This document shows, one piece after another, positions 137 through 64,000 of a stretch of 64,000 nt of DNA. Made by a program: the position numbers and the translations under genes. Below the pieces are notes generated by a model. That model ran no database searches. It was not told the origin of the DNA and worked only from the letters and a program-made list of their open reading frames with translations. Source of the DNA: Thiomicrospira sp. (GTDB taxonomy: Bacteria; Pseudomonadota; Gammaproteobacteria; Thiomicrospirales; Thiomicrospiraceae); the NCBI RefSeq assembly GCF_014859555.1, contig NZ_JACUTY010000005.1, positions 1,462 to 65,461 on the forward strand, written 5' to 3'. Numbering within the stretch: position 1 is the first letter of the stretch; the number at the start of each line of letters is the position of its first letter.

Positions 137-1222
137 TTGAGCTTTGCAGCACGTTTATTAGCTTGGTTTGATGTGCATGGCCGTCACGATTTGCCTTGGC
201 AGCATCCGCGTTCGCCTTATCAGGTTTGGGTGTCGGAAATTATGTTGCAGCAAACCCAGGTGCAGACGGTGATTCCATACTTCGAACGTTTTATGCAGCG
301 CTTTCCTGATATTAAGGCGTTGGCGTTGGCAGAGCAGGATGAGGTTTTGGCGCATTGGGCTGGGCTGGGTTATTACGCACGTGGACGAAATTTGCACAAA
401 GCGGCTCAGATTATTGACACCCAGCATGGCGGCGAGTTTCCTGATGAATTTGAGGCGATTATAGCGTTGCCGGGAATTGGACGTTCGACCGCTGGGGCGA
501 TTTTGTCGCAGGCATTTGAGCAACGTTATGCGATTTTGGATGGCAATGTAAAGCGTGTGTTAACGCGTTATGCGGCGATTGAAGGTTGGCCGGGCCATAA
601 AAAGCTCGAAACTAAATTATGGCAATTAGCCGAAGACTTAACCCCGCCAACCCGTTTTGCCGATTACACTCAGGCGATTATGGATTTAGGCGCGACCTTA
701 TGCAAAAGAACCAGGCCCGGTTGTGATCAATGCCCGCTTAAACAGGATTGCCAAGCTTATCAAGCCGGGCGCGCCGCCGAGTTCCCTTATTCTAAGCCTA
801 AAAACCCCAAACCCATTCGCCAGGCCTGGTTTTTATTATTGTTAAACACGGATGGAAAAATCGCTTTGATACAACGCCCAAACAGCGGTATTTGGGGCGG
901 TTTGTATAGTTTGCCGGAGTTTGATTCTTTCGATGCGTTAAGCTTGGCTGGGGTGGATTTGAATAGTCTGGTAAAATGGTCGGGTATTCGGCACAGTTTT
1001 AGTCATTATCATTTAGATATGATGCCAGTGTGTGCGTTAAGTGCGCCGACTGTGGCCGAACCAAGCGAACCTTATAATTGGTTAACGATAGAAGAGGCTT
1101 TAAAAGTCGGGCTTCCGGCACCGATTAAAACCTTATTACAACGTGCATTAAATCAAACAGATGTAGAAACAAAACCTTTTGGAGGTATCTATGACAAGAC
1201 AAGTACATTGCGCAAAATTTAA
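137..1222 (+). CDS. mutY: A/G-specific adenine DNA glycosylase
   Basis: Motifs [10 protein letters not shown], Hh[20 protein letters not shown] and 4Fe-4S C-x6-C-x2-C-x5-C. Likely TTG start at 137 after AGGAG (ORF track opens at 41). Confidence 0.95.
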
Positions 1223-1460
1223 CGAAGATATGGAAGGCTTGGACTTTTCGCCTTTTCCGGGTGAGCTGGGTAAACGTGTTTACGAGAGCGTTTCTAAAGA
1301 AGCTTGGAAACAATGGTTAAGCCAACAGACGATTTTGATAAATGAATACCGTTTATCCAGTTTAGATCCGAAAGCGCGGTCGTTTCTGCAAGAAGAGATG
1401 CAAAAGTTCTTATTTGGTGATGAGGATATTGACATGCCGGACGAATTTAAGCCGGTTTAA
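1191..1460 (+). CDS. yggX: Fe(II)-trafficking / oxidative damage protection protein
   Basis: [10 protein letters not shown]...[17 protein letters not shown] family signature; GGAGG RBS at 1181; canonical mutY-yggX synteny. Confidence 0.93.
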
Positions 1461-1503
1461 GCCTTTATATGCAGCAAAATTAGAATTTTTAGGCAATAGA
1501 GTT

Positions 1504-1512
1504 TGTTATAAT
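1504..1512 (+). promoter_or_regulatory. Extended -10 sigma70 promoter element (TGTTATAAT)
   Basis: Perfect TGnTATAAT ending about 32 nt upstream of the EAL/HDOD start codon. Confidence 0.6.
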
Positions 1513-1544: not shown

Positions 1545-2759
1545 ATGTCTAAATTGATCGATATCTTTGTTGGGCGTCAGCCAGTCTTTAATGGTCAACT
1601 GCAACTATTTGCTTATGAATTGCTTTTTCGCACCAATAGTGAAGACAATCATGCCGTAATTGTCGGCGGTGATAGCGCGTCCGCCCAGGTCATGCTGAAT
1701 ACCTTTGGTGACATAGGTATTAAAGACGTGGCAGGTGATCATAAAGTATTTATTAACTTCACCGAAGGCTTGCTGCTACGCGAATATCAACCCTTCTTCC
1801 CTAAAAGTCAGGTTATTATTGAGATCCTAGAGGATGTTAATGTAACGCCGACTCTGCTTAAAGCTATTCAAAAACTGCGTGATAAAGGCTATACCATCGC
1901 CTTAGATGACTATGTGTTTAACCCCAAACTTGAACCGCTGGAAGCCTTAGCCGATATTATAAAAGTTGATATTCTCGAAGTTGGTCCCAAACAAATGTTG
2001 GAGCACGTGCAGCGTTTGAAGGACAAGGGTGTGCGTTTACTCGCCGAAAGGGTCGAAACCCGCGAACAGTACGATTTTTGTAAAAAAATTGGCTTTGATT
2101 ATTTCCAAGGTTACTTTTTTGCCAAGCCGGTGATTATTAAAGGTCAGCGTTTACCGACTAACAAAGCCAGTGTATTAGAGCTGTTATCGAACGTTTACGA
2201 TCCCAATGTGGATATGGTAAAACTCAGTCATATCATTGCAAAAGATGTATCGTTAAGCCAAAAACTACTGCGATTTTTAGCCCAAGATGGCGTGGCTGGT
2301 AAGACAAAAATCACCTCGATTCACGATGCGGTATTACGTTTTGGTTTAGAGCGTTTAAAGAGTTGGGCGGGCATGTTGGTTTTGTCGGGTATGGACGATA
2401 AACCGGATGAGTTATTTCATACCTCTTTAACCCGCGCTAAGTTTTGTGAACTGGTGGCTGAACGTTTAAAAGACGCACCAAAAGAGCTGTATTTTACAGT
2501 TGGATTGTTTTCAACTTTAGACGCGGTAATGGATTTAGACTTGCCCAGCTTGTTGGGCAAGTTGAGTTTAGATGAGTTAATTGTAGCGGCATTGATGGGT
2601 GAAGAAAATCCACCAGGCCTGGTGCTAAAAGCCGCCAGAAGTTTAGAGCAAGGTTCGACCCGTTTTAAATTGCCGGGTGATTTGACGCCGACTGAATTAT
2701 CGAACCTTTATTTGCAAGCAATGCAGTATACGCAAAGCGTGAACTTGTTGCCTTTATAA
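1545..2759 (+). CDS. EAL + HDOD domain protein (YuxH-like c-di-GMP phosphodiesterase family)
   Basis: FVGRQP, AYELLFR, EILE, ALDDY, LAERVE and FQGYFF motifs, followed by an HDOD-like region (DVSLSQKLLR, LFSTLDA). Confidence 0.88.
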   Translation: MSKLIDIFVGRQPVFNGQLQLFAYELLFRTNSEDNHAVIVGGDSASAQVMLNTFGDIGIKDVAGDHKVFINFTEGLLLREYQPFFPKSQVIIEILEDVNVTPTLLKAIQKLRDKGYTIALDDYVFNPKLEPLEALADIIKVDILEVGPKQMLEHVQRLKDKGVRLLAERVETREQYDFCKKIGFDYFQGYFFAKPVIIKGQRLPTNKASVLELLSNVYDPNVDMVKLSHIIAKDVSLSQKLLRFLAQDGVAGKTKITSIHDAVLRFGLERLKSWAGMLVLSGMDDKPDELFHTSLTRAKFCELVAERLKDAPKELYFTVGLFSTLDAVMDLDLPSLLGKLSLDELIVAALMGEENPPGLVLKAARSLEQGSTRFKLPGDLTPTELSNLYLQAMQYTQSVNLLPL

Positions 2760-3996: not shown

Positions 3997-4018
3997 CAAC
4001 CACCAGGCCTGGTGGTTG
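3997..4018. repeat. 22-bp perfect palindrome CAACCACCAGGCCTGGTGGTTG (long intergenic copy of the iterated palindrome)
   Basis: Read directly; lies 15 nt past the thermonuclease stop codon. Confidence 0.95.
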
Positions 4019-7397: not shown

Positions 7398-9596
7398 ATG
7401 GATATTACATTTATATTAAACGACTTAAACGATGCGCAACGTGAAGCGGTAACTTTAGAAGAACGCCACGCGTTAATTTTGGCCGGTGCGGGCAGTGGTA
7501 AAACACGCGTATTGGTGCATCGCATCGCTTGGTTAACCGAAGTGATGAAATTGTCGCCGTTTAATATTCTAGCCGTCACCTTTACTAATAAAGCCGCACG
7601 TGAGATGCGGGGCCGAATGGAACAGTTAATTGGTCACCAAGCCCAGGGCGTGACCATGGGAACCTTCCACGGTATTGCTTATCGCTTATTACGCCAGCAT
7701 TATGAAGCCGCCGGCTTACCGCAAAGTTTTCAAATTTTAGATTCGGATGATCAAAAGCGTTTAGTTAAACGTTTATTAAAGGCGATGGAGCTGGATGAAA
7801 CTCAGTGGCCGGTCAAACAAGTGCAAGCTTATATTAATGGTGAAAAAGAAGAAGGGCGTCGTCCGCATCATATTGACCCGGGTCACAATCCGTTTGTAAA
7901 AAAAATGCTGCAAATTTACCAAGCTTACGAACAACAGTGTCAAAAAGCAGGCCTGGTGGATTTCGCCGAGCTGTTGTTGCGTGCGCATGAACTCTGGCTG
8001 AAACGCCCTGAGATTCTGAGTTTTTATCAAGCACGTTATAAACACATCTTGGTGGACGAGTTCCAAGATACCAATAGCTTGCAGTATGCCTGGTTGCGTG
8101 TGTTGGCGGGCGCCACGGGCAAGTTGTTTGTGGTGGGTGACGATGACCAGTCTATTTATGGTTGGCGTGGCGCAAAAATCGAAAACATTCGATTGTTTGA
8201 GCAGGAGTTTGCCGATGTTAAAACCGTGCGTTTGGAACAAAATTATCGTTCCACCGGGCGTATTCTGAAAGCCGCCAACCATATTATTGCGTTTAACACC
8301 GAACGTATGGGCAAAGAGCTTTGGAGCGCGGGCGAAGATGGCGACCCTATTCGTATCTATGAATCTTTTAACGAATATGACGAAGCCAACTATGTGATCA
8401 GCCAAGCCAAAGCGTGGGTTGAGCAGGGTGGCGAGCGTTCTGATGTCGCGATCTTGTATCGTTCCAACGCACAATCGCGCGTGTTTGAGCAGGCGTTGAT
8501 TCAAGCCGAAATGCCTTATCGAATTTATGGCGGTTTGCGGTTTTATGATCGTGCTGAAGTCAAAGACGTATTGGCTTATTTGCGTTTATTGGTAAACCGC
8601 GATGACGATGCGTCGTTTGAACGGGTTTATAACCAACCCACGCGTGGCTTAGGCGAAAAAACCATGCAAACCGTGCGTGACTTAGCACGTGATTTGGGTT
8701 TGTCTTTATGGGATGCGGCCAAGGTTCAATTGGAATCCGGTTTAACTGCACGCGCGAAAGGAGCATTGAGTGGCTTTTTGGATTTAGTCGAGCAGTTGCA
8801 AATAGATACCCAAGGTAAAAGTTTACAAGATCAAGTAATGATGGTGATTTCACGTTCTGGGCTGCAAACGCATTTTGAAAAAGACCGCTCAGAACAAGGC
8901 CAAGCCCGGGTCGAAAACTTGGATGAACTGATTAATGCGGCCAGTGGCTTTGATAAAGCCCCGCCCGCCGAGAAAAACCCCAATCCCGATGATTTAGACG
9001 CGGCGATTAGCGATAATCCATTATTAAACTTTTTAGCTCAAGCAACCTTGGAAGCCGGAGATAATCAGGCCGAAGCTTGGGAGTCGGCGATACAGCTAAT
9101 GACCTTACATTCGGCCAAGGGTTTGGAGTTTCCACTGGTCTTTATGGTCGGGCTGGAAGAAGGTTTGTTCCCGTCTAAACCCTCGTTTGACGATCCGCTT
9201 CGGCTTGAAGAAGAACGTCGCCTAGCTTATGTCGGCATTACGCGTGCTGAACAAAAGCTGGTAATGACTTATGCTTTGCGCCGACGTTTGCACGGTACAG
9301 AAATTTACGCCGGGCCATCGCGTTTTCTAAAAGAGTTGCCGGAGGATTGTTTGGATTGGGTGCGGATGACTGGCCAAGTACAAACCGCGCGTGATTGGGC
9401 GTCGTCGAGTAGCCAAAAAACTCAGCATAACGAAGCTGGTTTTGTGATGGGGCAGCGTGTGTTTCATCAAAAATTTGGTGAAGGCACCGTATTGGCGACC
9501 GAAGGCTCGGGTGATCATGCACGTATTCAGGTTAATTTTAAACACGCGGGCTCTAAGTGGTTGGTTAAGGCTTACGCCAACTTGGAGACGGTTTAA
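7398..9596 (+). CDS. uvrD: DNA helicase II
   Basis: AGAGSGKT, DEFQDTN, VGDDDQSIY, MTLHSAKGLEF and EERRLAYVGITRA motifs plus C-terminal Tudor-like domain. Confidence 0.96.
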   Translation: MDITFILNDLNDAQREAVTLEERHALILAGAGSGKTRVLVHRIAWLTEVMKLSPFNILAVTFTNKAAREMRGRMEQLIGHQAQGVTMGTFHGIAYRLLRQHYEAAGLPQSFQILDSDDQKRLVKRLLKAMELDETQWPVKQVQAYINGEKEEGRRPHHIDPGHNPFVKKMLQIYQAYEQQCQKAGLVDFAELLLRAHELWLKRPEILSFYQARYKHILVDEFQDTNSLQYAWLRVLAGATGKLFVVGDDDQSIYGWRGAKIENIRLFEQEFADVKTVRLEQNYRSTGRILKAANHIIAFNTERMGKELWSAGEDGDPIRIYESFNEYDEANYVISQAKAWVEQGGERSDVAILYRSNAQSRVFEQALIQAEMPYRIYGGLRFYDRAEVKDVLAYLRLLVNRDDDASFERVYNQPTRGLGEKTMQTVRDLARDLGLSLWDAAKVQLESGLTARAKGALSGFLDLVEQLQIDTQGKSLQDQVMMVISRSGLQTHFEKDRSEQGQARVENLDELINAASGFDKAPPAEKNPNPDDLDAAISDNPLLNFLAQATLEAGDNQAEAWESAIQLMTLHSAKGLEFPLVFMVGLEEGLFPSKPSFDDPLRLEEERRLAYVGITRAEQKLVMTYALRRRLHGTEIYAGPSRFLKELPEDCLDWVRMTGQVQTARDWASSSSQKTQHNEAGFVMGQRVFHQKFGEGTVLATEGSGDHARIQVNFKHAGSKWLVKAYANLETV

Positions 9597-10750: not shown

Positions 10751-11533
10751 ATGGTTTCCTGGCTGATTTCAACCGACTTAGATGGCACTTTGTTAAATCA
10801 TAAAACCTATGACTACACCGGGATTGTTGCGTTATTGGCGAAGTTAGAAATGCAGGCAGTGCCAGTGATTTTGAACTCCAGTAAAACCCTAGCCGAGCTC
10901 ACAAAGTGGCGTCAAACCCTGCATTTAAAATGGCCAGTGATTGGTGAAAATGGCGGGGTTATTCAAGTAGATCAGTCGCCACCGATGTTAATCGGCCGAC
11001 CAATTAACGAAATAAGGGCGTTTTTAAACCGCTGGCGAGACCATCATGGCCAGCTGTTTGAAGGTTTTGGTGATTGGTCAGTCGAGCAGGTGATCAAGCA
11101 TACCGGGCTAAGCCGAGAAGATGCTTTGAATGCTCAACAGCGTTTGGTTTCCGAACCGATTTTATGGTTGGCTGAACCACCAGGCCTGGTGCTATTGGAA
11201 CAGGCTTTAGCACAGCAGGGTTTGCAGCTTCAAAAAGGTGGCCGTTTTTATCATGTGATGGCACAACATTCCAAGGCCAGCACGCTCAAAATTCTACTCA
11301 AAAACAGTGATCGCTATTTGGGCGATCAGACCGATTGGCATCTACTCGCATTAGGTGATGGCGAAAATGACCGCGCGATGCTCGAAATGGCCGAGGTTGC
11401 GGTGGTAATGCCGGATGCTAGTGGCCAATATTTAAGCCTAGATTCAAATAATCAAATCTATCAAGCCCAACAATCCGCCCCGCAAGGTTGGTTGGATGCG
11501 GTCAATCGGTGGGTATTAAAGGAGGCGGAATGA
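10751..11533 (+). CDS. gpgP: HAD-IIB glucosyl/mannosyl-3-phosphoglycerate phosphatase (GpgP/MpgP family)
   Basis: TDLDGTLL, NSSKT, GENGG and LGDGEND motifs; first gene of the cluster. Confidence 0.85.
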   Translation: MVSWLISTDLDGTLLNHKTYDYTGIVALLAKLEMQAVPVILNSSKTLAELTKWRQTLHLKWPVIGENGGVIQVDQSPPMLIGRPINEIRAFLNRWRDHHGQLFEGFGDWSVEQVIKHTGLSREDALNAQQRLVSEPILWLAEPPGLVLLEQALAQQGLQLQKGGRFYHVMAQHSKASTLKILLKNSDRYLGDQTDWHLLALGDGENDRAMLEMAEVAVVMPDASGQYLSLDSNNQIYQAQQSAPQGWLDAVNRWVLKEAE

Positions 11534-12741: not shown

Positions 12742-12753
12742 GGAGTTGAAGGT

Positions 12754-14529: not shown

Positions 14530-14530
14530 A

Positions 14531-14544: not shown

Positions 14545-14550
14545 GTTAAG

Positions 14551-16837: not shown

Positions 16838-17512
16838 TTAGAGTGTTTTCGCCATCGCCCAAGCCTCAACCACCAGGCCTGGTTGGGCGTCTTGAAGACG
16901 GCTGGCGGCGGCTTGCATGGTTGCGCCAGTGGTAATGACATCGTCGAGTAATGCGACGCGGTCAAAATCTTTTAATAAGACCGCGTCGGCTTCAAAGGCT
17001 TGCTTAAGATTTTGACGACGTTGTTTGGCTTTAAGTTGGGTTTGACTCGGGGTGGCGAGCGGGCGTGTTAATGCCGAAACAATCGGAATATTTAGCATTG
17101 GGCTTAACATCCGCGCCAATTCATACGCCTGGTTATAGCCACGTTCGCGCAGTCGTGTGCTATGCAGTGGGATCGGAATGATGGCTTGAATCCCTTGGGT
17201 GTGTAATTGCGGGGCTAACAGTTCGGCAAACAGACGACTTAAATCCAGTCGTTGGTGATATTTAAATTGGGCCATTAAATCGCGAAATTCAGCTTGGTAA
17301 GTGAACGCCACTTGGGTGCGACTGAATTGGGGTGGCTTGGACAAACACTGACCACATAGCAAACCCTGCGGACTGGGCTCGGCACAACATGGACAAACGT
17401 CGGAGCCAATTTGCCACTGAGCTATAAAGCTCGGGTCTAAGTCGTGTTTTTTGGTCGTAACCGCCGTGATGACGCAGGTTGGCGGAAATAGCCATTTTTC
17501 AAGCCAATGCAT
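16838..17512 (-). CDS. comF: ComF family competence protein (PRTase fold)
   Basis: CPCC...CGQC Zn motif, RGYNQA and LLDDVITTGAT. Likely ATG at 17512 (MHWLEK). Confidence 0.92.
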   Translation of the reverse strand: MHWLEKWLFPPTCVITAVTTKKHDLDPSFIAQWQIGSDVCPCCAEPSPQGLLCGQCLSKPPQFSRTQVAFTYQAEFRDLMAQFKYHQRLDLSRLFAELLAPQLHTQGIQAIIPIPLHSTRLRERGYNQAYELARMLSPMLNIPIVSALTRPLATPSQTQLKAKQRRQNLKQAFEADAVLLKDFDRVALLDDVITTGATMQAAASRLQDAQPGLVVEAWAMAKTL

Positions 17513-19749: not shown

Positions 19750-19771
19750 TAACCACCAGGCCTGGTGGTTA
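19750..19771. repeat. 22-bp perfect palindrome TAACCACCAGGCCTGGTGGTTA
   Basis: Read directly; its last 3 nt are the stop codon of the DsrE-like gene. Confidence 0.95.
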
Positions 19772-53010: not shown

Positions 53011-54314
53011 GCCGTAATATCCGCTTTGTGGAGTAAGGCATAATAAAAGCCATCCATGCCCTCTTCACCAGGTAGGATTTGTTTACCAATCTCGCCTTGC
53101 CCCCAGTCGCCAGCCATGGATTGCAATTGAGCATCGTTTTGGCGCTGCAAAAAGGCCGCAATTTGCTGTGTATTTTCTTGCGGTAACACCGAACAGGTGG
53201 CATAAAGCAATTGGCCGCCAGGTTTCAGTGTTTGCCAAAGTTGATCTAATAAATGCGCTTGAATCACGACCAAGGCCTCAATATCTTCTGGACGACGGTG
53301 ATGTTTGATATCTGGATGGCGCCGAATAATACCGGTCGCCGAGCAGGGCGCATCCAGCAATATCTGATCGAAGGGTTGGCCGTCCCACCAGGTTTCAATA
53401 TCGCCCGCATCGGCCACTTTCGTGTGCACATCAAGCTGAAGGCGCGCCAAGTTTTCCTGCAAACGTGGCAACCGATCGGCTTGTTTTTCAAGGGCCAACA
53501 ACCAGGCCTGGTTATCACAAAATTCAAGTAAATGTCCGGTTTTACCGCCGGGGGCAGCACAGGCATCTAACAGGCGCATGCCCGCTTGTGGCTGTAAAAT
53601 CAACGCAGCTTGTTGCGCGGCGATATCTTGCACACTAAAACCACCCTGTTCAAAACTCGGTAATTGGCTGATATCTACCGGACTGGTTAAAGCAATACCG
53701 ACTGGGCTAAGAGGGTGCGCATGAGCTGAAACCCCGACTTCGTTTAGTTGGCTTAAAAAGACATCACGTGTTTGCACACGTTGGTTCACTCGTAAAGTTA
53801 ACGGAGCCGTTTGATTGTTTTGTTGCAAAATTTGTTCATATTGATCTGGGTAAGCCTGTTTTAAATTCTTAACTAGCCAGGCTGGGTGGGAGGTTTGCAT
53901 GCCAATGTCATTAGGTAGCTTGGATAAAATGGCTTCTCTGTCACGTAGAAATGTACGTAAAACGCCGTTTAATAGACCACGAGCCCAAGGCTTTTTGAGC
54001 TTCTGACTTAAATTCACGGTTTCTGATACTGCCGCATGATCGGGCGTATCCAGATACAAAAGCTGATAAAGCGCGAGCAGAATTAAGCTGTTAATGTCTT
54101 CGTCTTTGGCTTTGAGTGGTTTGGCTAATAATTGATCACGCACCGCAACTAAACGCTGGTACCAGCGCAAGCAGCCAAACACCAGGTTTTGGGTAAAAGC
54201 TCGATCGCGCCGATCGGAAATAGCCTGTAAGGCATTCGGCAAAGCTTGGCTAAGTGATTGACCCTGGTGAGTCACATTTAACAACGCATTAAGAGCAGCA
54301 CGACGTGGATTCAT
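53007..54314 (-). CDS. rsmB: 16S rRNA m5C967 methyltransferase
   Basis: NusB-like N-terminus, DACAAPGGKT, LDAPCSATG and YATCS. Confidence 0.96.
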   Translation of the reverse strand: MNPRRAALNALLNVTHQGQSLSQALPNALQAISDRRDRAFTQNLVFGCLRWYQRLVAVRDQLLAKPLKAKDEDINSLILLALYQLLYLDTPDHAAVSETVNLSQKLKKPWARGLLNGVLRTFLRDREAILSKLPNDIGMQTSHPAWLVKNLKQAYPDQYEQILQQNNQTAPLTLRVNQRVQTRDVFLSQLNEVGVSAHAHPLSPVGIALTSPVDISQLPSFEQGGFSVQDIAAQQAALILQPQAGMRLLDACAAPGGKTGHLLEFCDNQAWLLALEKQADRLPRLQENLARLQLDVHTKVADAGDIETWWDGQPFDQILLDAPCSATGIIRRHPDIKHHRRPEDIEALVVIQAHLLDQLWQTLKPGGQLLYATCSVLPQENTQQIAAFLQRQNDAQLQSMAGDWGQGEIGKQILPGEEGMDGFYYALLHKADITA

Positions 54315-54326: not shown

Positions 54327-55253
54327 TTAAATAAGCGTTTTGCCGATGACATTGCGCGCTTGGCAAAAGTCATAGGCCGACATAGGTTTTTTACCCGCCG
54401 GTTGCAACTGCGTAATACGCACCAAGCCTTCGCCCGCCATTACGTCCACACCGAGTTTTTCTAATAAAATCATTTCGCCGGGTTTGTCGTGTTTGGGACC
54501 GTCTAAGGCTTGTGCTTGTAAAATACGCAAAGGCTGGCCGTCAAAATGCGTGAAGGCCATCGGCCAAGGATTAAATGCATGAATTCGACGTACGATGTGC
54601 TGGGCGGATAAAGACCAATCAATTTCGGCTTCGGCTTTAGTCAGCTTGGCGGCATAGCAGGCCTGGTGGTCTTGCTGTGCTTCTGGGTTAAGCTGAATAA
54701 GTTTTGCCAGTGTGTCTAATAAAGCTTGTGCGCCCATCGGAGCTAGGCGGTCATGCAGTGTGTGGGCCGTATCATTCGGTCGAATATCGGTTTCGAGCTT
54801 ATACAACATAGCACCCGTATCTAAGCCGGCATCCATTTGCATAATGGTAATGCCAGTTTGTTGATCCCCGGCTTCAATCGCGCGTTGAATCGGCGCCGCA
54901 CCACGCCAGCGAGGTAACAAGGAGGCGTGAATGTTTAGACAGCCTAGCTTGGGTGTGTCTAGCACCGTTTGCGGTAGAATCAAGCCATAAGCCACCACCA
55001 CCATAATATCCGCATTTAACGCGGCCAACTCAGTTTGGGCTTCGGGTGTTTTAAGGCTTTCGGGTTGAAATACAGGCAGATTGTGTGCGAGCGCGAGTTG
55101 TTTGACTGGGCTGGGCGTGAGTTTTCGACCACGACCCGCTGGACGGTCAGGTTGGGTATAAACCCCGACCACTTGATGCGCTGAATCCAATAAGGCTTGC
55201 AAAGGCGCGACCGAAAACTCTGGTGTACCAGCAAAAATAATTCGATAACTCAT
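54327..55253 (-). CDS. fmt: Methionyl-tRNA formyltransferase
   Basis: FAGTPEF, QPDRPAGRG and NIHASLLPRWRGAAPI. ATG at 55253. Confidence 0.97.
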   Translation of the reverse strand: MSYRIIFAGTPEFSVAPLQALLDSAHQVVGVYTQPDRPAGRGRKLTPSPVKQLALAHNLPVFQPESLKTPEAQTELAALNADIMVVVAYGLILPQTVLDTPKLGCLNIHASLLPRWRGAAPIQRAIEAGDQQTGITIMQMDAGLDTGAMLYKLETDIRPNDTAHTLHDRLAPMGAQALLDTLAKLIQLNPEAQQDHQACYAAKLTKAEAEIDWSLSAQHIVRRIHAFNPWPMAFTHFDGQPLRILQAQALDGPKHDKPGEMILLEKLGVDVMAGEGLVRITQLQPAGKKPMSAYDFCQARNVIGKTLI

Positions 55254-55855: not shown

Positions 55856-56968
55856 ATGAATAAAAATGCCGACAATACCGAGCTGACCCTTTGGCTGCGA
55901 CTTCATTTGGCTTATTTAAGCGCCAAGCAGGTTCAGCGGGTTGTGAATCATATAGGTGACTTCGCGCAATTGGCGTATACTCAACGTTCAGACTGGTTGC
56001 CAGTGCCCAAAATTACTGAGAAGCAGGCCGATGCGTTTTTTCAGGTAGAAGAGGCGCAAATTCAACAAGCCTTAGACTGGGCGCAGCAACCCAATCACCA
56101 TATTGTTACGCTAGACGATGACGCTTTTCCAGAGCTGTTGCGCGAAATTTCTGACCCACCCATTTTATTGTATGTGCGCGGTGATTTGAGCTTGTTAAAA
56201 AGTCCGCAACTAGCGGTGGTTGGCAGTCGTCACGCATCACGCCAAGGCCTGCAAATTGCAGAAGACTTTGGTGAGCACCTGTCTCGCGTCGGCTTGTGTA
56301 TCACGAGTGGTTTAGCGCATGGCATAGACGCCGCCGCCCATCGCGGTGGCTTGCGTGGACAAGGTCAAACTTTAGCCGTGGTGGGCACGGGGTTAGACCG
56401 AATTTATCCGGCCGCCAATCAAAACTTAGCACGCCAAATTGCCGAGCAAGGTGCGATTGTTTCGGAATATCCACTTGGTACTCGACCTTTGGCACAGAAT
56501 TTTCCTAAACGTAATCGAGTGATCAGCGGCATGTCCACTGGCTGTTTGGTGGTGGAGGCGGCCTTAAAAAGTGGCTCTCTCATTACCGCTCGTCAGGCCA
56601 TGGAACAAGGGCGCGAAGTATTTGCGGTTCCGGGTTCAATCAATAACTCGTTGGCGAAAGGTTGTCATCAATTGATTAAACAAGGCGCCAAACTGGTCGA
56701 GTCGGCGCAAGACGTGTTGGAAGAGTTGGCCCCTTTGGTAGCCTTCAGTTGGGATAACGATAACACCAAGCCTGAAACATCAGCACCAGGCCTGGTCGAA
56801 CAAACAAAACATCCGTTATTGGCGGTGGTGGAGTACGAGCCGATAAGTTTAGATGAGTTGGTGGTGATGACAAAAATGGCCGCATCGGATATCCAGGCTC
56901 AAATGATGATTCTGGAACTCAGTGGTCAAGTGGAGTCCCTTTCAGCCGGACGCTGGCGACGCATATAG
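55856..56968 (+). CDS. dprA: DNA-processing protein DprA
   Basis: AVVGSR, SGLAHGID, FPKRNR, SGSLITA and REVFAVPG; C-terminal winged helix. Confidence 0.96.
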   Translation: MNKNADNTELTLWLRLHLAYLSAKQVQRVVNHIGDFAQLAYTQRSDWLPVPKITEKQADAFFQVEEAQIQQALDWAQQPNHHIVTLDDDAFPELLREISDPPILLYVRGDLSLLKSPQLAVVGSRHASRQGLQIAEDFGEHLSRVGLCITSGLAHGIDAAAHRGGLRGQGQTLAVVGTGLDRIYPAANQNLARQIAEQGAIVSEYPLGTRPLAQNFPKRNRVISGMSTGCLVVEAALKSGSLITARQAMEQGREVFAVPGSINNSLAKGCHQLIKQGAKLVESAQDVLEELAPLVAFSWDNDNTKPETSAPGLVEQTKHPLLAVVEYEPISLDELVVMTKMAASDIQAQMMILELSGQVESLSAGRWRRI

Positions 56969-59026: not shown

Positions 59027-59229
59027 CGCTGAGTGCTACCAGGCCTGGTGGTAATAAATCGAAGCTAATAGTTGTAAAACCAAACATTTGATCGCAATAT
59101 ATTTGGGTTTTTGCATCACAATGGTTACAATCGCGACAAATTACGGTGTAATGACTTTTTGATTTTTAATGTTTGCATTATGAATAAAATTTTTGCAGTC
59201 TTTATATAGAGCGTCATACACAAACATTA

Positions 59230-59389: not shown

Positions 59390-59409
59390 ATTATATTTAA
59401 GGTTTATCA

Positions 59410-61878
59410 ATGAAGAATTTGGTGATAGTAGAGTCGCCGGCCAAGGCCAAGACCATCGAACAATATCTGGGCAAAGATTTTACTGTGCGCTCCAGTTACG
59501 GACATATTCGTGACTTGTCGAAAAAAGGTATGGGGATTGATCTGGCTAATCGATTTGAGCCGAGCTATGAAATATCACCGGACAAAAAGAAAACCGTCAC
59601 CGAGCTGCGAAAGCTCGCTAAAGAGGCCGATGCGGTTTGGTTGGCGACGGATGAGGACCGCGAAGGGGAAGCCATTGCTTGGCACCTAGCGGAAGCCTTA
59701 AAGCTGAATGTGGCAGAAACCAAACGTATCGTATTCCACGAGATCACCAAAGATGCGATCACCCATGCGGTCGCGCATCCGCGTACCGTGGATCTAAACT
59801 TGGTGAATGCGCAACAAGCACGTCGAATTCTAGATCGTGTGGTCGGGTTTGAATTATCGCCAATCTTGTGGAAAAAAATTCGTACTGGGCTCTCGGCCGG
59901 TCGTGTGCAATCGGTTGCGGTGCGTTTGATTGTTGAACGTGAACGTGAAGTTGACGCTTTTAATGCGCAAGTGTCTTATAAAGTTCAAGGCCAGTTGCAA
60001 CCAATTGGTGAGCAGGGCGAACTCGGCGAAACGTTTAATGTGAAACGTGTTGCCGGTTTTGAAACCGAACAGCAAGCGCAACAGTATTTAGAAGCGCTGG
60101 CGTTATCCAGCTTAAAGGTTGAAAACCTAGAACAAAAACCCGCCAAACGTGCGCCTAAAGCGCCGTTTACCACTTCAACTTTGCAGCAGGAAGCCTCACA
60201 AAAACTGGGATTTTCGGTCAAACAAACCATGGTGATTGCCCAGCGTTTATATGAGTCCGGTAAGATCACTTATATGCGTACCGACTCAGTCAACCTGTCG
60301 GAAACCGCGATTGCGCAAGCTAAGCAAACCATTGAATCTGATTTTGGCGCGAAATATAGTCATCCACGTCGGTTTAAAACCAAGCAAGCGGATGCCCAAG
60401 AAGCCCACGAAGCCATCCGCCCCACCGAGTTTTCGGTGCGCGAAGTCAATGGCGAGCGCAACGAACAACGTTTATATCAGCTAATTTGGCGACGCACGAT
60501 GGCCTCGCAAATGGCGGAAGCTGAACTGCTGCGCACCACGGTCGATATCAGCGTGAGTGAATTGGCGCAAGAAAGATTACAAGCCAAAGGTGAAATGGTC
60601 ACGTTTGATGGCTTCCTAAAGGTTTATAACCTTGACGGAACCAAAGATGACGATGTGTTGCTGCCAGCCATGCAAGTGGGTCAAGCGCTTAATTTGGTTG
60701 AGATGGTCGCCAAACAAAGCTTCAGTCGTGCACCAGCACGTTACAACGAAGCCAGCCTAGTCCGTACCCTAGAAGAAATGGGAATTGGTCGTCCCTCTAC
60801 TTATGCACCCACCATTGATACAGTTCAACAACGTGGCTATGTAGTCAAAGAGGATCGCGAAGGCACACCACGCGAAATTCGTCAGCTCACCCTTAGTGGT
60901 GGAAAAGTCGAAGCCGAAACCTTGTCTGAAATGGCGGGGGCGGAAAAAAACAAACTTTTCCCAACCGATATTGCTGGCATAGTGAATGACTTTTTAGTGA
61001 AAAACTTCGGTGAAGTGTTGGATTATAAGTTCACCGCTAAGGTCGAAGCCGAGTTTGATGAAATCGCGACAGGCGACCAGGCCTGGCAGGATATGTTGGA
61101 AAGTTTTTACACCAAGTTTCATCCGAAAGTTGAAGTGGCCGAAACGCTTTCTAGAGAAGAGGCTGGTCAAGCGCGGGCGTTGGGTGATGACCCTAAAACC
61201 GGCAAACCCGTGTTTGTTAAAATCGGACGTTTTGGCCCTTATGTTCAGCTAGGCGAAGGCGAAGATGATGAAAAACCCACCTTTGCCAGTTTAAGACCCG
61301 GCCAAAAAATGGATACGCTGAAGTTAGATGATGCGATGGAGTTGTTTAAATTACCTCGCAGTTTGGGCGAAATGCCTGAGTCCTATTCAGCTAAAGCCGC
61401 CGATGGCACCGAGTTTGTTGTCGAAAAAGGTCAAACCTTGATCGCCAAACAAGGGCCATTCGGGCCTTATTTGGAATACGGCGAAAAACTGTTTGCGCCG
61501 ATCAAAGGTTACGATCCATTAAGCATTACTTTAGACGAAGCGGTGGTGTTGGTTGAAGCCAAAATTCAAGCCGATGCGGACAAAATTGTGCGTAGCTTCG
61601 CGGGCACGGATGTCAAAATACTCAATGGCCGTTGGGGACCATATATTACGGATACCTCAACCAAGGTGAATGCTAAAATTGCCAAAACCGAAGACCCGAA
61701 TGATTTGACCTTAGAAGAATGTCAAAAACGTTTAGCTGAAGCACCACCACCTAAAAAACGTGGCCGAGCCGCGGCTAAAAAACCCGCCGCCAAAAAAGCG
61801 ACGGCTAAGAAGGCCCCCGCTAAAAAACCAGCGGCCAAAAAGCCCGCCAAAAAGCCCGCGACTAAAGCTAGCAAATAG
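59410..61878 (+). CDS. topA: DNA topoisomerase I with C-terminal repeats and Lys/Ala/Pro-rich tail
   Basis: IVESPAKA, ATDEDREGE, SAGRVQ, ITYMRTDS, GIGRPST, GRFGPY repeats and PAKK tail. Confidence 0.97.
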   Translation: MKNLVIVESPAKAKTIEQYLGKDFTVRSSYGHIRDLSKKGMGIDLANRFEPSYEISPDKKKTVTELRKLAKEADAVWLATDEDREGEAIAWHLAEALKLNVAETKRIVFHEITKDAITHAVAHPRTVDLNLVNAQQARRILDRVVGFELSPILWKKIRTGLSAGRVQSVAVRLIVEREREVDAFNAQVSYKVQGQLQPIGEQGELGETFNVKRVAGFETEQQAQQYLEALALSSLKVENLEQKPAKRAPKAPFTTSTLQQEASQKLGFSVKQTMVIAQRLYESGKITYMRTDSVNLSETAIAQAKQTIESDFGAKYSHPRRFKTKQADAQEAHEAIRPTEFSVREVNGERNEQRLYQLIWRRTMASQMAEAELLRTTVDISVSELAQERLQAKGEMVTFDGFLKVYNLDGTKDDDVLLPAMQVGQALNLVEMVAKQSFSRAPARYNEASLVRTLEEMGIGRPSTYAPTIDTVQQRGYVVKEDREGTPREIRQLTLSGGKVEAETLSEMAGAEKNKLFPTDIAGIVNDFLVKNFGEVLDYKFTAKVEAEFDEIATGDQAWQDMLESFYTKFHPKVEVAETLSREEAGQARALGDDPKTGKPVFVKIGRFGPYVQLGEGEDDEKPTFASLRPGQKMDTLKLDDAMELFKLPRSLGEMPESYSAKAADGTEFVVEKGQTLIAKQGPFGPYLEYGEKLFAPIKGYDPLSITLDEAVVLVEAKIQADADKIVRSFAGTDVKILNGRWGPYITDTSTKVNAKIAKTEDPNDLTLEECQKRLAEAPPPKKRGRAAAKKPAAKKATAKKAPAKKPAAKKPAKKPATKASK

Positions 61879-61965
61879 TTGAAGTTTAAAAGGCCGTCAA
61901 GGCCAAGCGGTTTGGGATAAAATAGCCAACTTTCCGCGCCACCTATTTACGCAAACGAGACAAGC

Positions 61966-63729
61966 ATGAAAACAAAATTAAACCAAATTTTGATTGAAGT
62001 AGCCGATCAACTTAAACAGCAGGGTGTGATTCCGGCTGACCAAGACGTTAAGGTTCAAGTTGATCCAACCCGTGATAAAGCGCATGGTGATTTTGCCACC
62101 AACCTTGCTATGACACTTGCCAAACCAGCGGGATTGCCGCCACGTGAGTTGGCCGCCAAAATTATTGCGTTATTACCCGCACAATCGGTGATCACCAAAG
62201 TTGAAATGGCTGGCCCTGGTTTTATTAACTTTTTTGTTGATGATCAAGCCAAGTTTGCCGTGGTGCAACAAGTGCTGCAACAAAAAAACCAGTTTGGTCA
62301 AAATGGTGCCGGACAAGGGCGTTCGGTGTTAGTCGAATATGTGTCGGCTAACCCAACCGGGCCTTTGCATGTCGGTCACGGTCGCGGTGCGGCTTATGGC
62401 GCGAGTTTGGTGAATCTGCTTGGGTTTGCCGGTTTTGATGTGACCGCCGAATATTATGTTAATGATGCCGGTCGTCAGATGGATATTTTAGCGACGTCGG
62501 TCTGGTTACGTTATTTAGAAATTTGTGGCGAGCAATTCCCGTTCCCAAGTAATGGTTACAAGGGTGACTATATTTATGCCATCGCGCGTCAATTGTTTGA
62601 CCAGCACGGCGATGCGTTACGTAAACCGGCGTTTGAAGTCTTTGCCGGTGCCTTCCCAGATGAAGGTCAAGACGGTGGCGATAAAGAAAAACACATTGAT
62701 GCCTTGATCGAGCGCGCTAAAGCCTTATTAGGCGGAGTGGATTTTGAACAAGTTTTTAGCTTAGCCATAAAGGATATTCTGACCGATATCGAAGAAGACT
62801 TGTCGGAGTTTGGGGTTAAGTTTAATAATTGGTTTTCTGAGCGTTCATTAATGCATACTGGCGTGGTGGATGCAGCGCTGGAAAAGTTGCAACAAGCCGA
62901 TAAAATTTACGAAAAAAATGGCGCACTTTGGTTTCGTTCAACCGAATATGGTGATGAAAAAGACCGGGTGGTGGTGCGCGATAATGGCTTAAAAACCTAT
63001 TTTGCGTCGGATATTGCCTATCACTTTAATAAACTTGAACGCGGTTACGAAACCATCATTGATATTTGGGGATCTGACCACCACGGTTATATTCCACGTG
63101 TAAAAGCGGCGATGCAAGCGATGGAAACCAATCCAGATGCGTTGCAAGTGTTGTTAGTGCAGTTTGCGATTTTGTACCGCGGCGGCGAACGTGCGCAGAT
63201 GTCAACGCGAAGCGGTCAGTTTGTGACCTTACGTGAATTGCGTGAAGAAGTCGGTACCGATGCGGCGCGTTTTTTCTATGTCGCACGTAAATCCGAACAA
63301 CATATGGATTTTGATTTAGATTTGGCCAAATCGCAATCTAACGACAATCCGGTTTATTATATTCAATATGCGCATGCTCGTATTTGTAGCGTATTGGGTC
63401 AGTTGGCTGAAAAAGGTTATGCGCTTGACGAAGCGATGGGCTTGGCTAATTTAGATCAGTTAAGCACCGAGCACGAAGTGGATTTGGCGACCAAATTAGC
63501 CCAGTTTCCAGATTTAATTGGACGCGCGGCGCTGGCTTATGAACCACACCAAATCGCCTATTATTTAAAAGAATTGGCGCATGGTTTACACAGCTATTAC
63601 AACTCGGAGCATTTTATTGTCGAACAAGCCGAGTTACGTAATGCACGTATGGTGCTGATTTTAGCCGTGCAGCAAGTTTTGCAGAACGGCTTGGCGATTA
63701 TCGGTGTTACCGCGCCTGAGAAAATGTAA
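61966..63729 (+). CDS. argS: Arginine--tRNA ligase
   Basis: SANPTGPLHVGHGR, GSDHHGY, MSTRSG and YIQYAHAR. Confidence 0.97.
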   Translation: MKTKLNQILIEVADQLKQQGVIPADQDVKVQVDPTRDKAHGDFATNLAMTLAKPAGLPPRELAAKIIALLPAQSVITKVEMAGPGFINFFVDDQAKFAVVQQVLQQKNQFGQNGAGQGRSVLVEYVSANPTGPLHVGHGRGAAYGASLVNLLGFAGFDVTAEYYVNDAGRQMDILATSVWLRYLEICGEQFPFPSNGYKGDYIYAIARQLFDQHGDALRKPAFEVFAGAFPDEGQDGGDKEKHIDALIERAKALLGGVDFEQVFSLAIKDILTDIEEDLSEFGVKFNNWFSERSLMHTGVVDAALEKLQQADKIYEKNGALWFRSTEYGDEKDRVVVRDNGLKTYFASDIAYHFNKLERGYETIIDIWGSDHHGYIPRVKAAMQAMETNPDALQVLLVQFAILYRGGERAQMSTRSGQFVTLRELREEVGTDAARFFYVARKSEQHMDFDLDLAKSQSNDNPVYYIQYAHARICSVLGQLAEKGYALDEAMGLANLDQLSTEHEVDLATKLAQFPDLIGRAALAYEPHQIAYYLKELAHGLHSYYNSEHFIVEQAELRNARMVLILAVQQVLQNGLAIIGVTAPEKM

Positions 63730-64000
63730 TGGCGCAAGACTTTCGACATGCGCCGATGCGTCGTAAGACTTATCAGCGCAAATCTCAACTCAATCCTGAT
63801 TCAAGTTCCACATCTACCAGGCCTGGTGGTTCGTTTAGCTCAGCTCAAACCTTATGGTTAGTGGGTTTCGTATTAAGCCTTGTACTCGTTACGGTGTTTT
63901 TTGTGGTTAAACACTTTGCCTCGCAAGGGGTAAAAGCCTCCGAATCACGTAGCAGCCAAGTATATCAAGCACAAACGCCCGTTTCGGTTGAAGCTGATAA
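63729..64000 (+). CDS. 5' part of a SPOR/FtsN-like protein (runs off the window)
   Basis: ATG overlaps the argS stop; MAQDF...basic region then a TM helix (LWLVGFVLSLVLVTVFFVV); open to the window end; argS-SPOR synteny is common. Confidence 0.65.
   Translation, partial: MAQDFRHAPMRRKTYQRKSQLNPDSSSTSTRPGGSFSSAQTLWLVGFVLSLVLVTVFFVVKHFASQGVKASESRSSQVYQAQTPVSVEAD

Follow-up and report, generated by a model that had tools for sequence, protein, structure and literature searches.

A short palindromic DNA motif, with a core of 10 to 12 bases (A)CCAGGCCTGG(T), recurs throughout the 64-kb window (the whole stretch of Thiomicrospira DNA analysed here, 64,000 nucleotides). The motif very likely belongs to the class of the cyanobacterial HIP and the DNA uptake sequences and is maintained at the DNA level. 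As a sequence of this class it is new for the lineage, whereas its octamer has already been published for a cyanobacterium, Synechococcus sp. PCC 6312.

Four nested palindromes were counted in the window: the 8-mer CAGGCCTG 28 times, the 10-mer CCAGGCCTGG 22 times, the 12-mer ACCAGGCCTGGT 16 times and the 14-mer CACCAGGCCTGGTG seven times, which reproduced exactly the counts of the first-pass annotation of this DNA. Dinucleotide-preserving shuffles of the window contained 0.66, 0.05, 0 and 0 copies, respectively, and composition-based and Markov estimates placed the expected number of octamers at 0.66 to 0.8. In an unbiased k-mer scan of the window the motif family ranked first at k = 8, 10 and 12, with enrichments of 35-, 320- and 2161-fold over an order-2 Markov model. 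The excess also survived a codon-aware null, proposed as a check in the first-pass annotation, in which synonymous codons were shuffled while proteins and codon usage were preserved. The coding part of the window held 23 octamers compared with 2.13 ± 1.41 under this null (maximum 8 in 1000 shuffles), and 17 copies of the 10-mer compared with 0.6. The GC content of the window, which the annotation had put at about 44%, was measured as 45.6%.

The positions G-1, G-2, A-3 and C-4 from the centre were fixed by the search. The outer arm then tapered through C-5 (89%), A-6 (82%), C-7 (55%), C-8 (55%), A-9 (61%) and A-10 (48%), and no arm conservation was observed past position 10 among the window copies. 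The 20-mer consensus given earlier was right in direction, although it tapers outward and is complete in two window copies only (3997-4018 and 19750-19771), both of them intergenic. The copies extend from 820-829 to 63816-63827 at 0.44 per kb, and unselected loci of carrier genomes showed 0.24 to 0.76 per kb. HIPs are associated with quasi-periodic spacing on a scale of 10-90 kb; over the 64 contiguous kb of the window, local spacing was near random (CV 0.87), so there was no sign of even spacing. In 732 kb of DNA from the family, 329 perfect octamers were found against 11.7 expected, and every one-mismatch octamer occurred at 0.6 to 1.2 times expectation. Since the one-mismatch octamers stay at chance level, recognition of the core looks all-or-none. 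The 28 window copies are as follows (coordinates, length and context; no strand is assigned).

820..829, 10-bp CCAGGCCTGG, in mutY, frame CAG-GCC-TGG (QAW)
2611..2624, 14-bp CACCAGGCCTGGTG, in an EAL-domain gene, frame CCA-GGC-CTG (PGL)
3997..4018, 22-bp perfect palindrome CAACCACCAGGCCTGGTGGTTG, intergenic, about 15 nt past the stop of a nuclease gene (4033-4842, minus strand); RNA hairpin of -14.8 kcal/mol
7948..7955, 8-bp copy, in uvrD, PGL frame
11178..11191, 14-bp copy, in an MPGP-family phosphatase gene; kept in relatives L088, L089 and L090
14531..14544, 14-bp copy, between a convergent GH13 gene and glycerate kinase gene; kept in L088 and L089, with arms that vary by species
14937..14950, 14-bp copy, in the glycerate kinase gene, RPG frame; core kept in L088-L090, flanks diverged
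16872..16883, 12-bp copy, in comF/gntX; kept in L088-L090
18404..18413, 10-bp copy, in bioB; kept in L088-L090 and ALE5 (L097)
19164..19175, 12-bp copy, in bioF (HQAW); common to Thiomicrospira, Thiomicrorhabdus and Thiosulfativibrio at the DNA level, decayed or absent in Galenea and H. kuenenii
19750..19771, 22-bp perfect palindrome TAACCACCAGGCCTGGTGGTTA, between convergent bioF and a DsrE-like gene; hairpin of -15.3 kcal/mol
21096..21111, 16-bp copy, in bioH; kept as far as T. microaerophila (L091)
22207..22216, 10-bp copy, in bioC; kept in L088-L090, degenerate in L091
23201..23208, 8-bp copy, in a DUF1275 gene
23473..23480, 8-bp copy, in a DUF1275 gene
25201..25208, 8-bp copy, in a HutZ/HugZ-like gene; present in L088 and L089, no motif at the aligned place in L090
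26791..26798, 8-bp copy, in a copper P-type ATPase gene, RPG frame
27861..27870, 10-bp copy, in a FecCD permease gene; kept in L088-L090
29887..29898, 12-bp copy, in a thioredoxin-domain (DsbH-like) gene
35997..36008, 12-bp copy, in hisB
42306..42315, 10-bp copy, in fixH/ccoH
44266..44279, 14-bp copy, in the ccoI P-type ATPase gene
53500..53513, 14-bp AACCAGGCCTGGTT, in rsmB
54658..54665, 8-bp copy, in fmt
56785..56796, 12-bp copy, in dprA
59038..59049, 12-bp copy, intergenic, 12 nt past the stop of a C39-like peptidase gene
61077..61086, 10-bp copy, in topA
63816..63827, 12-bp copy, intergenic, 87 nt past the stop of argS

Twenty-three of these copies (82%) lie within ORFs, so the earlier description of them as mostly inside housekeeping genes holds, and the five intergenic ones are all at most 100 nt past a stop codon. 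The in-gene copies are distributed over the three reading frames as 11, 10 and 2, and copies of 8-10 bp fall in genes in proportion to the coding share. The motif bends codon choice and even protein sequence, with an excess of the tripeptides QAW and PGL. QAW was observed 11 times in the window proteins compared with 1.8 expected, and the motif encodes nine of these 11 through the minority codon CAG.

Orthologous genes of related species carry the motif at matching sites. Across the alignments of such genes, third-codon positions within the octamer were identical in 87 of 88 cases (99%) and those in the two bases on each side in 53 of 56, while identity was 58% in the adjacent 12-nt flanks and 57% in the background. 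In L090 alone, all 20 third-codon positions were identical compared with an expected fraction of 0.51 (p = 1.4e-6). The intergenic sites 14531-14544 and 19750-19771 were also retained in relatives. Aligned sites that are empty of the motif differed by base changes alone, without insertions or deletions, as at L090 position 9410, which reads AAGCAGGCCTGGAT compared with AAGCCGGCTTGGAT in the window. New copies thus arise through point substitution in pre-existing genes.

The 18-mer matched many genomes of Thiomicrospira, Hydrogenovibrio, Thiomicrorhabdus and Thiosulfatimonas. Nearly all of these genomes had the octamer as their first-ranked palindrome in the sampled DNA; by genus, it ranked first among palindromic octamers in Thiomicrospira, Thiomicrorhabdus, Thiosulfativibrio, Thiosulfatimonas and some Hydrogenovibrio. 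Samples of 21 kb from H. marinus, H. kuenenii and Galenea each contained none. The motif is therefore common to several genera, with outer arms that are weaker and genus-specific, and judging from these samples it is lost in part of Hydrogenovibrio. Conservation at synonymous sites, the all-or-none core and the absence in some sister lineages together point to a lineage-specific reading system. This agrees with the first-pass annotation in so far as it proposed a sequence-recognition system, while none of the systems that it listed is singled out.

Full-length copies gather where coding constraint is absent, just 3' of genes. The intergenic share climbed with length, from 10-12% at 8-10 bp to 90% for perfect palindromes of at least 22 bp. 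Intergenic copies lay a median of 34 nt past a 3' end; 66 of them had only a 3' end nearby and 12 only a 5' end. Palindromes of at least 22 bp were often of the form AAAAACCACCAGGCCTGGTGGTTTTT, which would suit a two-way terminator, as in the uptake sequences of Neisseria and Haemophilus, and the recurrent long form was AAAAACCACCAGG|CCTGGTGGTTTTT. The long palindromes span 22-44 bp, and many have an A-run at one flank and a T-run at the other. In Thiomicrospira their arms are site-specific and perfectly complementary up to 44 bp, and A5-stem-T5 forms predominate in Hydrogenovibrio and Thiomicrorhabdus. Fold energies ranged from -13 to -30 kcal/mol, and the hairpin arms co-vary beyond the consensus. 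Position and fold suggest that the long copies may double as two-way transcription terminator hairpins. The two long copies of the window (3997-4018 and 19750-19771) are without a clean downstream T-run.

The octamer CAGGCCTG has been described before, in Synechococcus sp. PCC 6312, where it is the alternative HIP (Xu, Lawrence and Durand 2018, PMC5861425; Rodriguez-Cruz et al. 2026 preprint). For the sulfur-oxidiser lineage studied here, the first-pass annotation named no description of such a motif, and no paper on it was found. In both PCC 6312 and the Thiomicrospira group the identical octamer is the top palindromic octamer, lies within ORFs and has GGCC at its centre. The hosts belong to Cyanobacteriota and Gammaproteobacteria, respectively. 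The PCC 6312 plasmid carries 12 octamers (0.52 per kb), nine of which extend to CCAGGCCTGG, whereas all 12 lack both the A...T at ±6 and the CC/AA arms of the Thiomicrospira motif. Site conservation is demonstrated in Thiomicrospira relatives, whereas PCC 6312 lacked a comparison genome, and the terminator-type long forms present in the Thiomicrospira group have not been reported there. The PCC 6312 alternative HIP, the terminator-type long copies between genes, the occurrence in several genera with differing outer arms and the loss in part of Hydrogenovibrio had all escaped the first-pass annotation.

The likeness to HIP1 and to uptake sequences that the annotation had drawn was supported. 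HIP1 (GCGATCGC, cyanobacteria) and the present motif are both palindromic octamer cores, 15- to 300-fold over-represented, found within and between ORFs, conserved at orthologous positions and reaching about 1 per kb. Both are lineage-wide apart from a few sub-lineages in which they were lost, and neither shows enrichment of its inner methyltransferase-type site alone. The present motif differs in sequence, carries a longer signal (12 to 20 bp) and forms the tip of terminator-type hairpins, unlike HIP1. Its one-mismatch variants are unenriched, whereas one-off sites of HIP1 are also conserved (Xu et al., PMC5861425). HIP1 raises transformation efficiency in a methylation-dependent manner (bioRxiv 10.1101/2024.09.10.611283) and a role in DNA uptake, as the sequence recognised, has been proposed for it (bioRxiv 10.64898/2026.06.24.733823).

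A second comparison is with the uptake sequences of Neisseriaceae (DUS) and Pasteurellaceae (USS). These occur about once per 1-2 kb, in ORFs and in all frames, as family-wide motifs with dialects, positional stability and an origin by point mutation. Inverted copies make terminators after genes, and USS have a GC-rich core with AT-rich flanks. The Thiomicrospira motif resembles them in density, in its location in ORFs in all frames, and in its dialects, positional stability, point-mutation origin, terminator-type forms and GC-rich core with AT-rich flanks. However, known uptake sequences are asymmetric and read in one orientation, those of Neisseria by a monomeric pilin, and their uptake has been shown experimentally, whereas the present motif is a perfect palindrome.

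The best explanation overall, which we put forward tentatively, is a tag of the HIP/uptake class that is read by an uptake or recombination system. A lineage-specific system would read the core as double-stranded DNA, and the exact two-fold symmetry of the core makes a homodimeric reader probable. Copies arise by ordinary point substitution, as the alignments show, and perfect copies are almost never lost, so that they accumulate to about 1 per 1.5-2.5 kb in all three frames. The motif would tag "self" DNA and spread via molecular drive, as do DUS and USS and as proposed for HIP1. That the reader is the machinery by which naturally transformed cells take up and recombine DNA, possibly requiring a methylated site, is a possibility that we hold with some reserve. 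In its favour, the window contains comF and dprA; against it, these genes are near-universal, and comF is retained in the motif-free H. marinus and H. kuenenii. No report of natural transformation in this lineage was found in the searchable literature. No reader (methyltransferase, Vsr, uptake receptor or binding protein) was identified in the window or in about 0.9 Mb sampled from relatives, a small fraction of each genome, where the sole find was one type I HsdM.

The conservation, the gain by substitution and the loss in a sub-lineage would be explained just as well by a methylation-linked repair ratchet or by a protein-binding site under selection. In the methylation-linked ratchet of Elhai's HIP model, which we regard as rather unlikely here, an orphan methyltransferase would recognise the inner GGCC, AGGCCT or two abutting CCWGG, and methylation-directed mismatch repair would turn near-sites into the full palindrome and restore mutated ones. 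As read from the sequence, the motif nests the methyltransferase sites GGCC, AGGCCT, CCAGG and CCTGG, and all-or-none recognition resembles that of type II enzymes. AGGCCT outside the octamer is not enriched and is often depleted (O/E 0.2-0.6 in the densest genomes), which parallels CGATCG outside HIP1 (Elhai 2015), and deviations in the 12-mer cluster at the outer two positions, a pattern that Elhai also describes for HIP1. PCC 6312 has this octamer as its alternative HIP, and alternative HIPs are reported to accompany matching methyltransferases (Elhai 2015, as related in the introduction of a 2026 preprint). The density is also near the model's predicted saturation of roughly 1 per kb. However, the information reaches 12 bp, and weakly 20 bp, which exceeds usual methyltransferase sites, and one-mismatch octamers are not clearly depleted: CAGACCTG and CAAGCCTG, which arise by C-to-T change, occur at 1.0 and 0.9 times the expected number. 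Outside motif copies, CCWGG shows no excess (O/E 0.4-1.2), no methyltransferase gene bar the HsdM and no Vsr gene was present in the small genome fractions sampled, and Xu et al. 2018 hold that conserved positions speak for selection rather than for replenishment through repair. A footprint of Dcm/Vsr very-short-patch repair was rejected on the same CCWGG and C-to-T ratios. The cognate methyltransferases of HIP1 itself are DmtA and DmtC.

A selected binding site for an abundant dimeric protein that organises the nucleoid or chromosome, the reading of HIP1 by Xu, Lawrence and Durand, is also unlikely. Purifying selection would then keep each copy for a protein that needs sites chromosome-wide. 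A palindrome with 10-bp half-sites suits a homodimer, positional conservation is strong, the motif and its sites were lost together in a sub-lineage, and Xu et al. 2018 infer that HIP1 is under selection and plays a structural part. Such sites normally tolerate mismatches, yet one-off sites are unenriched here, and the spacing looks random in 64 kb. This explanation also gives no reason for the motif in terminator-type hairpins, and no candidate protein is known.

We consider it very improbable that the element is primarily an RNA hairpin (a terminator or 3'-end stabiliser) whose in-gene copies are incidental or act in mRNA. The long copies past 3' ends have A- and T-runs and fold well, and their arms co-vary. 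Nevertheless, about 80% of copies are short cores in ORFs that fold at about -2 kcal/mol, no better than shuffles, and these are the ones conserved at synonymous sites. Moreover, terminator stems need no single fixed sequence across genera, and for HIP1 Xu et al. detected no role at the RNA level.

The idea that the copies are what remains of a small mobile element (MITE or REP/RAYT type), or its ends, can hardly be right: the palindrome is repeated and its intergenic copies sit after genes as REPs do, yet 82% of window copies are in genes with the reading frame kept, motif-less orthologous sites differ by substitution rather than insertion, no sequence is conserved more than 10 nt from the centre, no target-site duplications or GTAG head were found, and the 18-mer had no matches in viral contigs. 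REPs are extragenic only, imperfect palindromes with a GTAG head, spread by a transposase (RAYT). REP/BIME and the motif both include extragenic, hairpin-capable palindromes past gene 3' ends, whereas the motif is mostly intragenic, perfect around a fixed centre and born by substitution. In-gene copies, gain without indels and the lack of an element body contradict such an origin. The statement of the first-pass annotation that the motif is not a CRISPR, REP cluster or IS end was supported.

Returning to a tag of the HIP/uptake class, a more speculative and doubtful extension is that CCAGGCCTGG marks one transferable reading module, which Synechococcus PCC 6312 and the ancestor of the Thiomicrospira group would have acquired independently and which the H. 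marinus/H. kuenenii branch would since have lost. Such a module could pair a methyltransferase with a methylation-dependent DNA-uptake or recombination factor. If this were true, HIPs and uptake sequences would be one phenomenon, and the contrast of presence and absence in a culturable lineage with small genomes could lead to the long-sought HIP reader through phylogenetic profiling. The Thiomicrospira group thus offers a new lineage in which to find what reads such tags.

The octamer CAGGCCTG occurs 28 times in the window, and the longer forms nested on the same centre occur 22 times as the 10-mer CCAGGCCTGG, 16 times as the 12-mer ACCAGGCCTGGT and 7 times as the 14-mer CACCAGGCCTGGTG, spanning 820-63827. 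These four counts are exactly those reported in the first-pass annotation, and its observation was confirmed. Dinucleotide-preserving shuffles gave expected counts of 0.66, 0.05, 0 and 0, respectively. The motif family also ranked first in an unbiased k-mer scan at k = 8, 10 and 12 (35x, 320x and 2161x over an order-2 Markov model), and no second word in the window came near its excess. The shuffles and the scan rule out chance or base composition as the source of the motif. Copies were not evenly spaced in the window (CV 0.87), and the motif-free 9.2 kb at 44.3-53.5 kb, with normal GC, was within Poisson expectation.

The window has a GC content of 45.6% and is ~91% coding; 23 copies are located inside ORFs and 5 between ORFs. 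The ORF copies are read as CAG-GCC-TGG (QAW) in 11 cases, CCA-GGC-CTG (PGL) in 10 and AGG-CCT-GG (RPG), which requires the rare codon AGG, in 2. A codon-aware null had been proposed in the first-pass annotation as a check, and it was run as 1000 synonymous shuffles in which every protein and the overall codon usage were preserved. While 23 octamers were observed, the shuffles gave 2.13 ± 1.41 with a maximum of 8, and the 10-mer was found 17 times in coding DNA versus 0.6 under the same null, which excludes a codon-usage or peptide artefact. The tripeptide QAW was observed 11 times in the window proteins versus 1.8 expected from amino-acid composition, and 9 of the 11 are encoded by the motif via the minority codon CAG. 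Hence, the DNA motif shapes the proteins and not the reverse. By half-site statistics in the window, the 12-mer is firm, with 89% C at -5 and 82% A at -6; the arm outside it is weaker (C 55%, C 55%, A 61%, A 48%), and no base preference was seen more than 10 nt from the motif centre.

The genes of the window are an ordinary gammaproteobacterial housekeeping set (mutY, hemE, rho, uvrD, a glucosylglycerate cluster, comF, bioBFHC, rpoH, tatC, hisBHAF, ccoNOQP-GHI, trkAH, rsmB, fmt, def, dprA, topA and argS). Its BioF is 87% identical to that of a Thiomicrospira MAG and 76-78% identical to that of T. microaerophila. Nearly the entire window DNA was recovered in one 'volcano metagenome' sequencing run, among runs that gave only metagenome contigs, an exact-protein look-up found no protein identical to the window GH13 protein, and Rfam gave no match within the window. 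The following features are given in window positions along the forward strand.

3997-4018: full-length palindrome, ranked first by a simple terminator scan of the window
4033-4842: staphylococcal-nuclease-like gene (269 aa), immediately upstream of the palindrome at 3997-4018
10751-15672: compatible-solute cluster (MPGP-family phosphatase, glucosyl-3-phosphoglycerate synthase-like gene, sucrose-phosphorylase-like GH13 enzyme and convergent glycerate kinase), also kept in three syntenic Thiomicrospira relatives and strain ALE5
59262-59395: non-coding element of ~130 nt upstream of topA

A secreted nuclease beside 3997-4018 could matter if the lineage takes up DNA. The element upstream of topA was also found in three sampled stretches (L063 4171-4305, L068 7545-7676 and L028 1952-2079) and is present twice in Thiomicrospira UBA5634. 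Its identity across species is 86-94%, compared with ~76% for their coding DNA, and it contains no ORF and has no Rfam match. Its consensus fold has 40 pairs, 3 of them with compensatory changes, and the element is a candidate structured RNA.

The region at 8.6-29.7 kb is syntenic with the three Thiomicrospira relatives, and almost all window copies there have a counterpart at the aligned position, with an identical core of 8-12 nt and differing adjacent bases. In these alignments, third-codon identity was 87/88 within the octamer and 53/56 in the two bases on each side, compared with 58% in the next 12 nt and 57% in the remainder of the genes. For the most distant syntenic relative alone, 20 of 20 third-codon positions were identical versus 0.51 (p = 1.4e-6). 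The bioF copy is ACCAGGCCTGGTT in Thiomicrospira, Thiomicrorhabdus and Thiosulfativibrio, genera in which BioF shares only 63-69% identity with the window protein, and the DNA aligned to it in Galenea and H. kuenenii is unrelated.

Copies also turn over: the window has about half of its copies in common with one of the syntenic relatives (L090) and few with T. microaerophila. Lineage-specific copies align to sites that differ by substitution only (AAGCAGGCCTGGAT vs AAGCCGGCTTGGAT; CAGCAGGCCTGGGT vs AACCAAAACTGGGT), and no insertions or deletions were found at them in the alignments. Since copies are gained by substitution without indels, a mobile element is excluded; MITE, REP, IS end and CRISPR were ruled out on this ground, on the location of most copies in ORFs and on the lack of a conserved body. 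In 732 kb of pooled family DNA, 329 perfect octamers were observed versus 11.7 expected, every one-mismatch octamer was at 0.6-1.2x expectation, and mismatches to the 12-mer were almost confined to its outer two positions. The motif is therefore a real one, maintained at the DNA level and arising by substitution, with a core that behaves as all-or-none: perfect copies are strongly protected and near-copies are worthless.

All apparent 'joints' in contigs of related strains (runs X2-X5, window 10000-28000; e.g., 14548>23038, 16883>26264 and 19771>23038) have a motif copy at their start or end, with 20-50 letters matching. They were read as spurious, as artefacts of assembly or alignment and not as rearrangements. 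The contigs of these runs tend to stop at motif copies; the palindrome fragments short-read assemblies.

The 18-mer ACCACCAGGCCTGGTGGT was used as a search word with one genome per species, which gave at least 87 stretches. Among the matches listed, almost all belonged to Thiomicrospira, Hydrogenovibrio, Thiomicrorhabdus, Thiosulfatimonas or another member of the Piscirickettsiaceae (NCBI family), and the unrelated taxa were 7 singletons, the number expected by chance. The 18-mer was not found in viral contigs. In 8-kb blocks of the listed matches, copies not used for selection amounted to 0.04-0.75 per kb in the family and 0-0.12 in unrelated taxa, and in nearly all family members sampled no palindromic octamer ranked above CAGGCCTG. 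Unselected 21-kb loci around bioF were then counted.

Octamers per unselected 21-kb bioF locus
Three Thiomicrospira relatives: 14, 15, 16
T. microaerophila: 12
Strain ALE5: 13
Thiomicrorhabdus lithotrophica: 10
Thiosulfativibrio zosterae: 5
Hydrogenovibrio kuenenii: 0
H. marinus: 0
Galenea microaerophila: 0

These counts indicate that the motif is common to several genera and was lost or never gained in part of Hydrogenovibrio, since finding no octamer in the 42 kb from two Hydrogenovibrio would have p = 0.004 even if the lowest density among carriers is assumed. Some sister lineages thus lack something on which the motif depends. A substitute palindrome in H. kuenenii, ACCATGGT (5 vs 0.7 expected, without extended structure), was too weak to claim.

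GGCC in the motif-free H. kuenenii and H. marinus loci is at 0.5-0.6 of the composition expectation, compared with 0.8-1.6 in carriers (most 0.9-1.5) and 0.94 in Galenea, and AGGCCT is scarce (1 and 3 copies). A restriction system that cuts GGCC could have left this shortage as its footprint, and might be why the motif was lost there. In ALE5, the RuBisCO/carboxysome operon (L097 14500-21158) has 0 copies in ~6.7 kb versus 13 in the preceding 13.5 kb (p ~0.002) and a GC content of 43.8% versus 47.0%; it may be recently acquired DNA, or may reflect a constraint of very high expression. Four contigs of the methanotroph MAG 'Methyloprofundus sp. Kmv24' (L018, L060, L063 and L074) carry the motif at a Thiomicrospira-like 0.44 per kb, their coverages differ widely, and one of the four has the topA-upstream element (94% identity). 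All four probably come from Thiomicrospira and were mis-binned.

Full-length copies are concentrated in hairpins that follow genes. In the family DNA as a whole, the intergenic share was 10-12% for perfect palindromes of 8-10 bp, equal to the non-coding share, and rose to ~25% at 12-14 bp, 44-49% at 16-20 bp and 90% at 22 bp or longer. Intergenic copies lie at a median of 34 nt from a gene 3' end, with 66 near a 3' end only versus 12 near a 5' end only, and each of the five in the window comes after a stop codon. The long form of Hydrogenovibrio, Thiomicrorhabdus, Thiosulfatimonas and the CG07 MAG is almost always AAAAACCACCAGG-CCTGGTGGTTTTT, an A-run, stem, GGCC loop and T-run, which by this layout is a predicted two-way intrinsic terminator design. 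In the Thiomicrospira branch, the arms past -9 are site-specific yet pair perfectly, in palindromes of up to 44 bp, and in many cases a T-run comes after them; the two long copies of the window lack a clean T-run. Predicted RNA hairpins of long copies reach -13 to -30 kcal/mol, whereas the 12-mer by itself shows no folding advantage over shuffles, and the arms co-vary outside the consensus (z = 2.6). These features suggest that long copies may act as terminators. The outer arms also vary by genus, with AAAGTTACCAGGCCTGGTAACTTT in Thiomicrorhabdus lithotrophica and AT-runs often one or two bases outside the 12-mer in H. halophilus, and look like dialects around a shared core. H. halophilus also has two tandem 12-mers 18 bp apart, ACCAGGCCTGGTaaaacaACCAGGCCTGGT (L021 525-554).

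To our knowledge, no highly iterated palindromes (HIP) had been reported outside cyanobacteria, and for 30 years there has been debate over whether they serve a methylation ratchet, nucleoid structure or DNA uptake. Hypotheses for the cyanobacterial HIP1 include a mismatch-repair ratchet directed by methylation (Elhai 2015), a role in chromosome structure that is under selection (Xu 2018, PMC5861425) and DNA uptake or recombination (bioRxiv 10.64898/2026.06.24.733823), and, in support of the last, HIP1 stimulates transformation in a way that depends on methylation (bioRxiv 10.1101/2024.09.10.611283). Our octamer is already published as the over-represented palindrome of Synechococcus sp. PCC 6312, which lacks HIP1; its conservation could not be tested in that study (Xu, Lawrence and Durand 2018, PMC5861425). 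A 2026 preprint (Rodriguez-Cruz et al.) repeats the observation and points out the GGCC core. The alternative HIP of PCC 6312 and the Thiomicrospira-group motif are identical in the octamer. The PCC 6312 plasmid pSYN6312.01, which is small, non-mobilizable and without HIP1, contains 12 octamers in 23 kb (0.52 per kb), 9 of them as the 10-mer, and none of the 12 has the A...T of the 12-mer. The two phyla therefore have the 10-mer in common, and the gammaproteobacterial version is longer. No report of the motif as a genomic motif of sulfur oxidisers was found in the literature searched, nor is it mentioned in the T. crunogena genome paper. The motif belongs to the HIP/uptake-sequence class, and there are close precedents for the phenomenon. 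We know of no earlier HIP octamer carried outside cyanobacteria.

The genome-wide sequence-recognition system proposed in the first-pass annotation is a reasonable general inference. We infer that a sequence-specific reader of double-stranded DNA exists, and it is probably a dimer. No reader protein was found in the window, ~0.9 Mb of relatives or the PCC 6312 plasmid. The plasmid also encodes a DUF559 (Vsr-fold) protein and a ResIII helicase, and its large unannotated ORFs gave three proteins without a Pfam match and nothing decisive. Catalytic-motif patterns and Pfam detected only a type I HsdM, in H. halophilus, as methyltransferase or Vsr in the window and ~0.9 Mb of relatives.

Uptake sequences of Neisseria and Haemophilus are known for one word in ORFs in all frames and in terminator hairpins, with family dialects, and the present motif combines the same features, with terminator hairpins that are predicted. 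We tentatively rank first a role in which the motif would tag self-DNA for uptake or recombination, because of this combination of features and because the most recent HIP1 work agrees. A methylation ratchet maintaining the motif is ranked next and seems unlikely: GGCC, AGGCCT and CCWGG sites are nested in the motif, AGGCCT is not enriched outside the octamer and deviations are concentrated at outer positions, but the signal reaches 12-20 bp and no deamination or repair footprint was seen. A Dcm/Vsr-type footprint had no support from one-mismatch octamers or from CCWGG outside the motif. A nucleoid-protein site, which agrees with the symmetry and conservation, is similarly doubtful, as the all-or-none core does not fit it.

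Genomes of Thiomicrospira-group bacteria are ~2.2-2.7 Mb. The motif provides an equally strong HIP case in an unrelated, culturable lineage, with the very octamer that one cyanobacterium has in place of HIP1. Three assets not found together in cyanobacteria are combined here: relatives with the motif (H. halophilus and others) and without it (H. marinus and H. kuenenii), which suit gene-content profiling; a longer, more specific recognition sequence, which suits pull-downs; and terminator-type long forms, whose apparent double role connects HIPs with how the uptake sequences of Neisseria and Haemophilus behave. For carrier organisms, the palindrome breaks short-read assemblies, and, as a compact marker, it allows contigs to be assigned to the group, as it flags the probably mis-binned ones in the 'Methyloprofundus' MAG. 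If the role in uptake or recombination is true, the motif could aid genetic tools for these chemolithoautotrophs.
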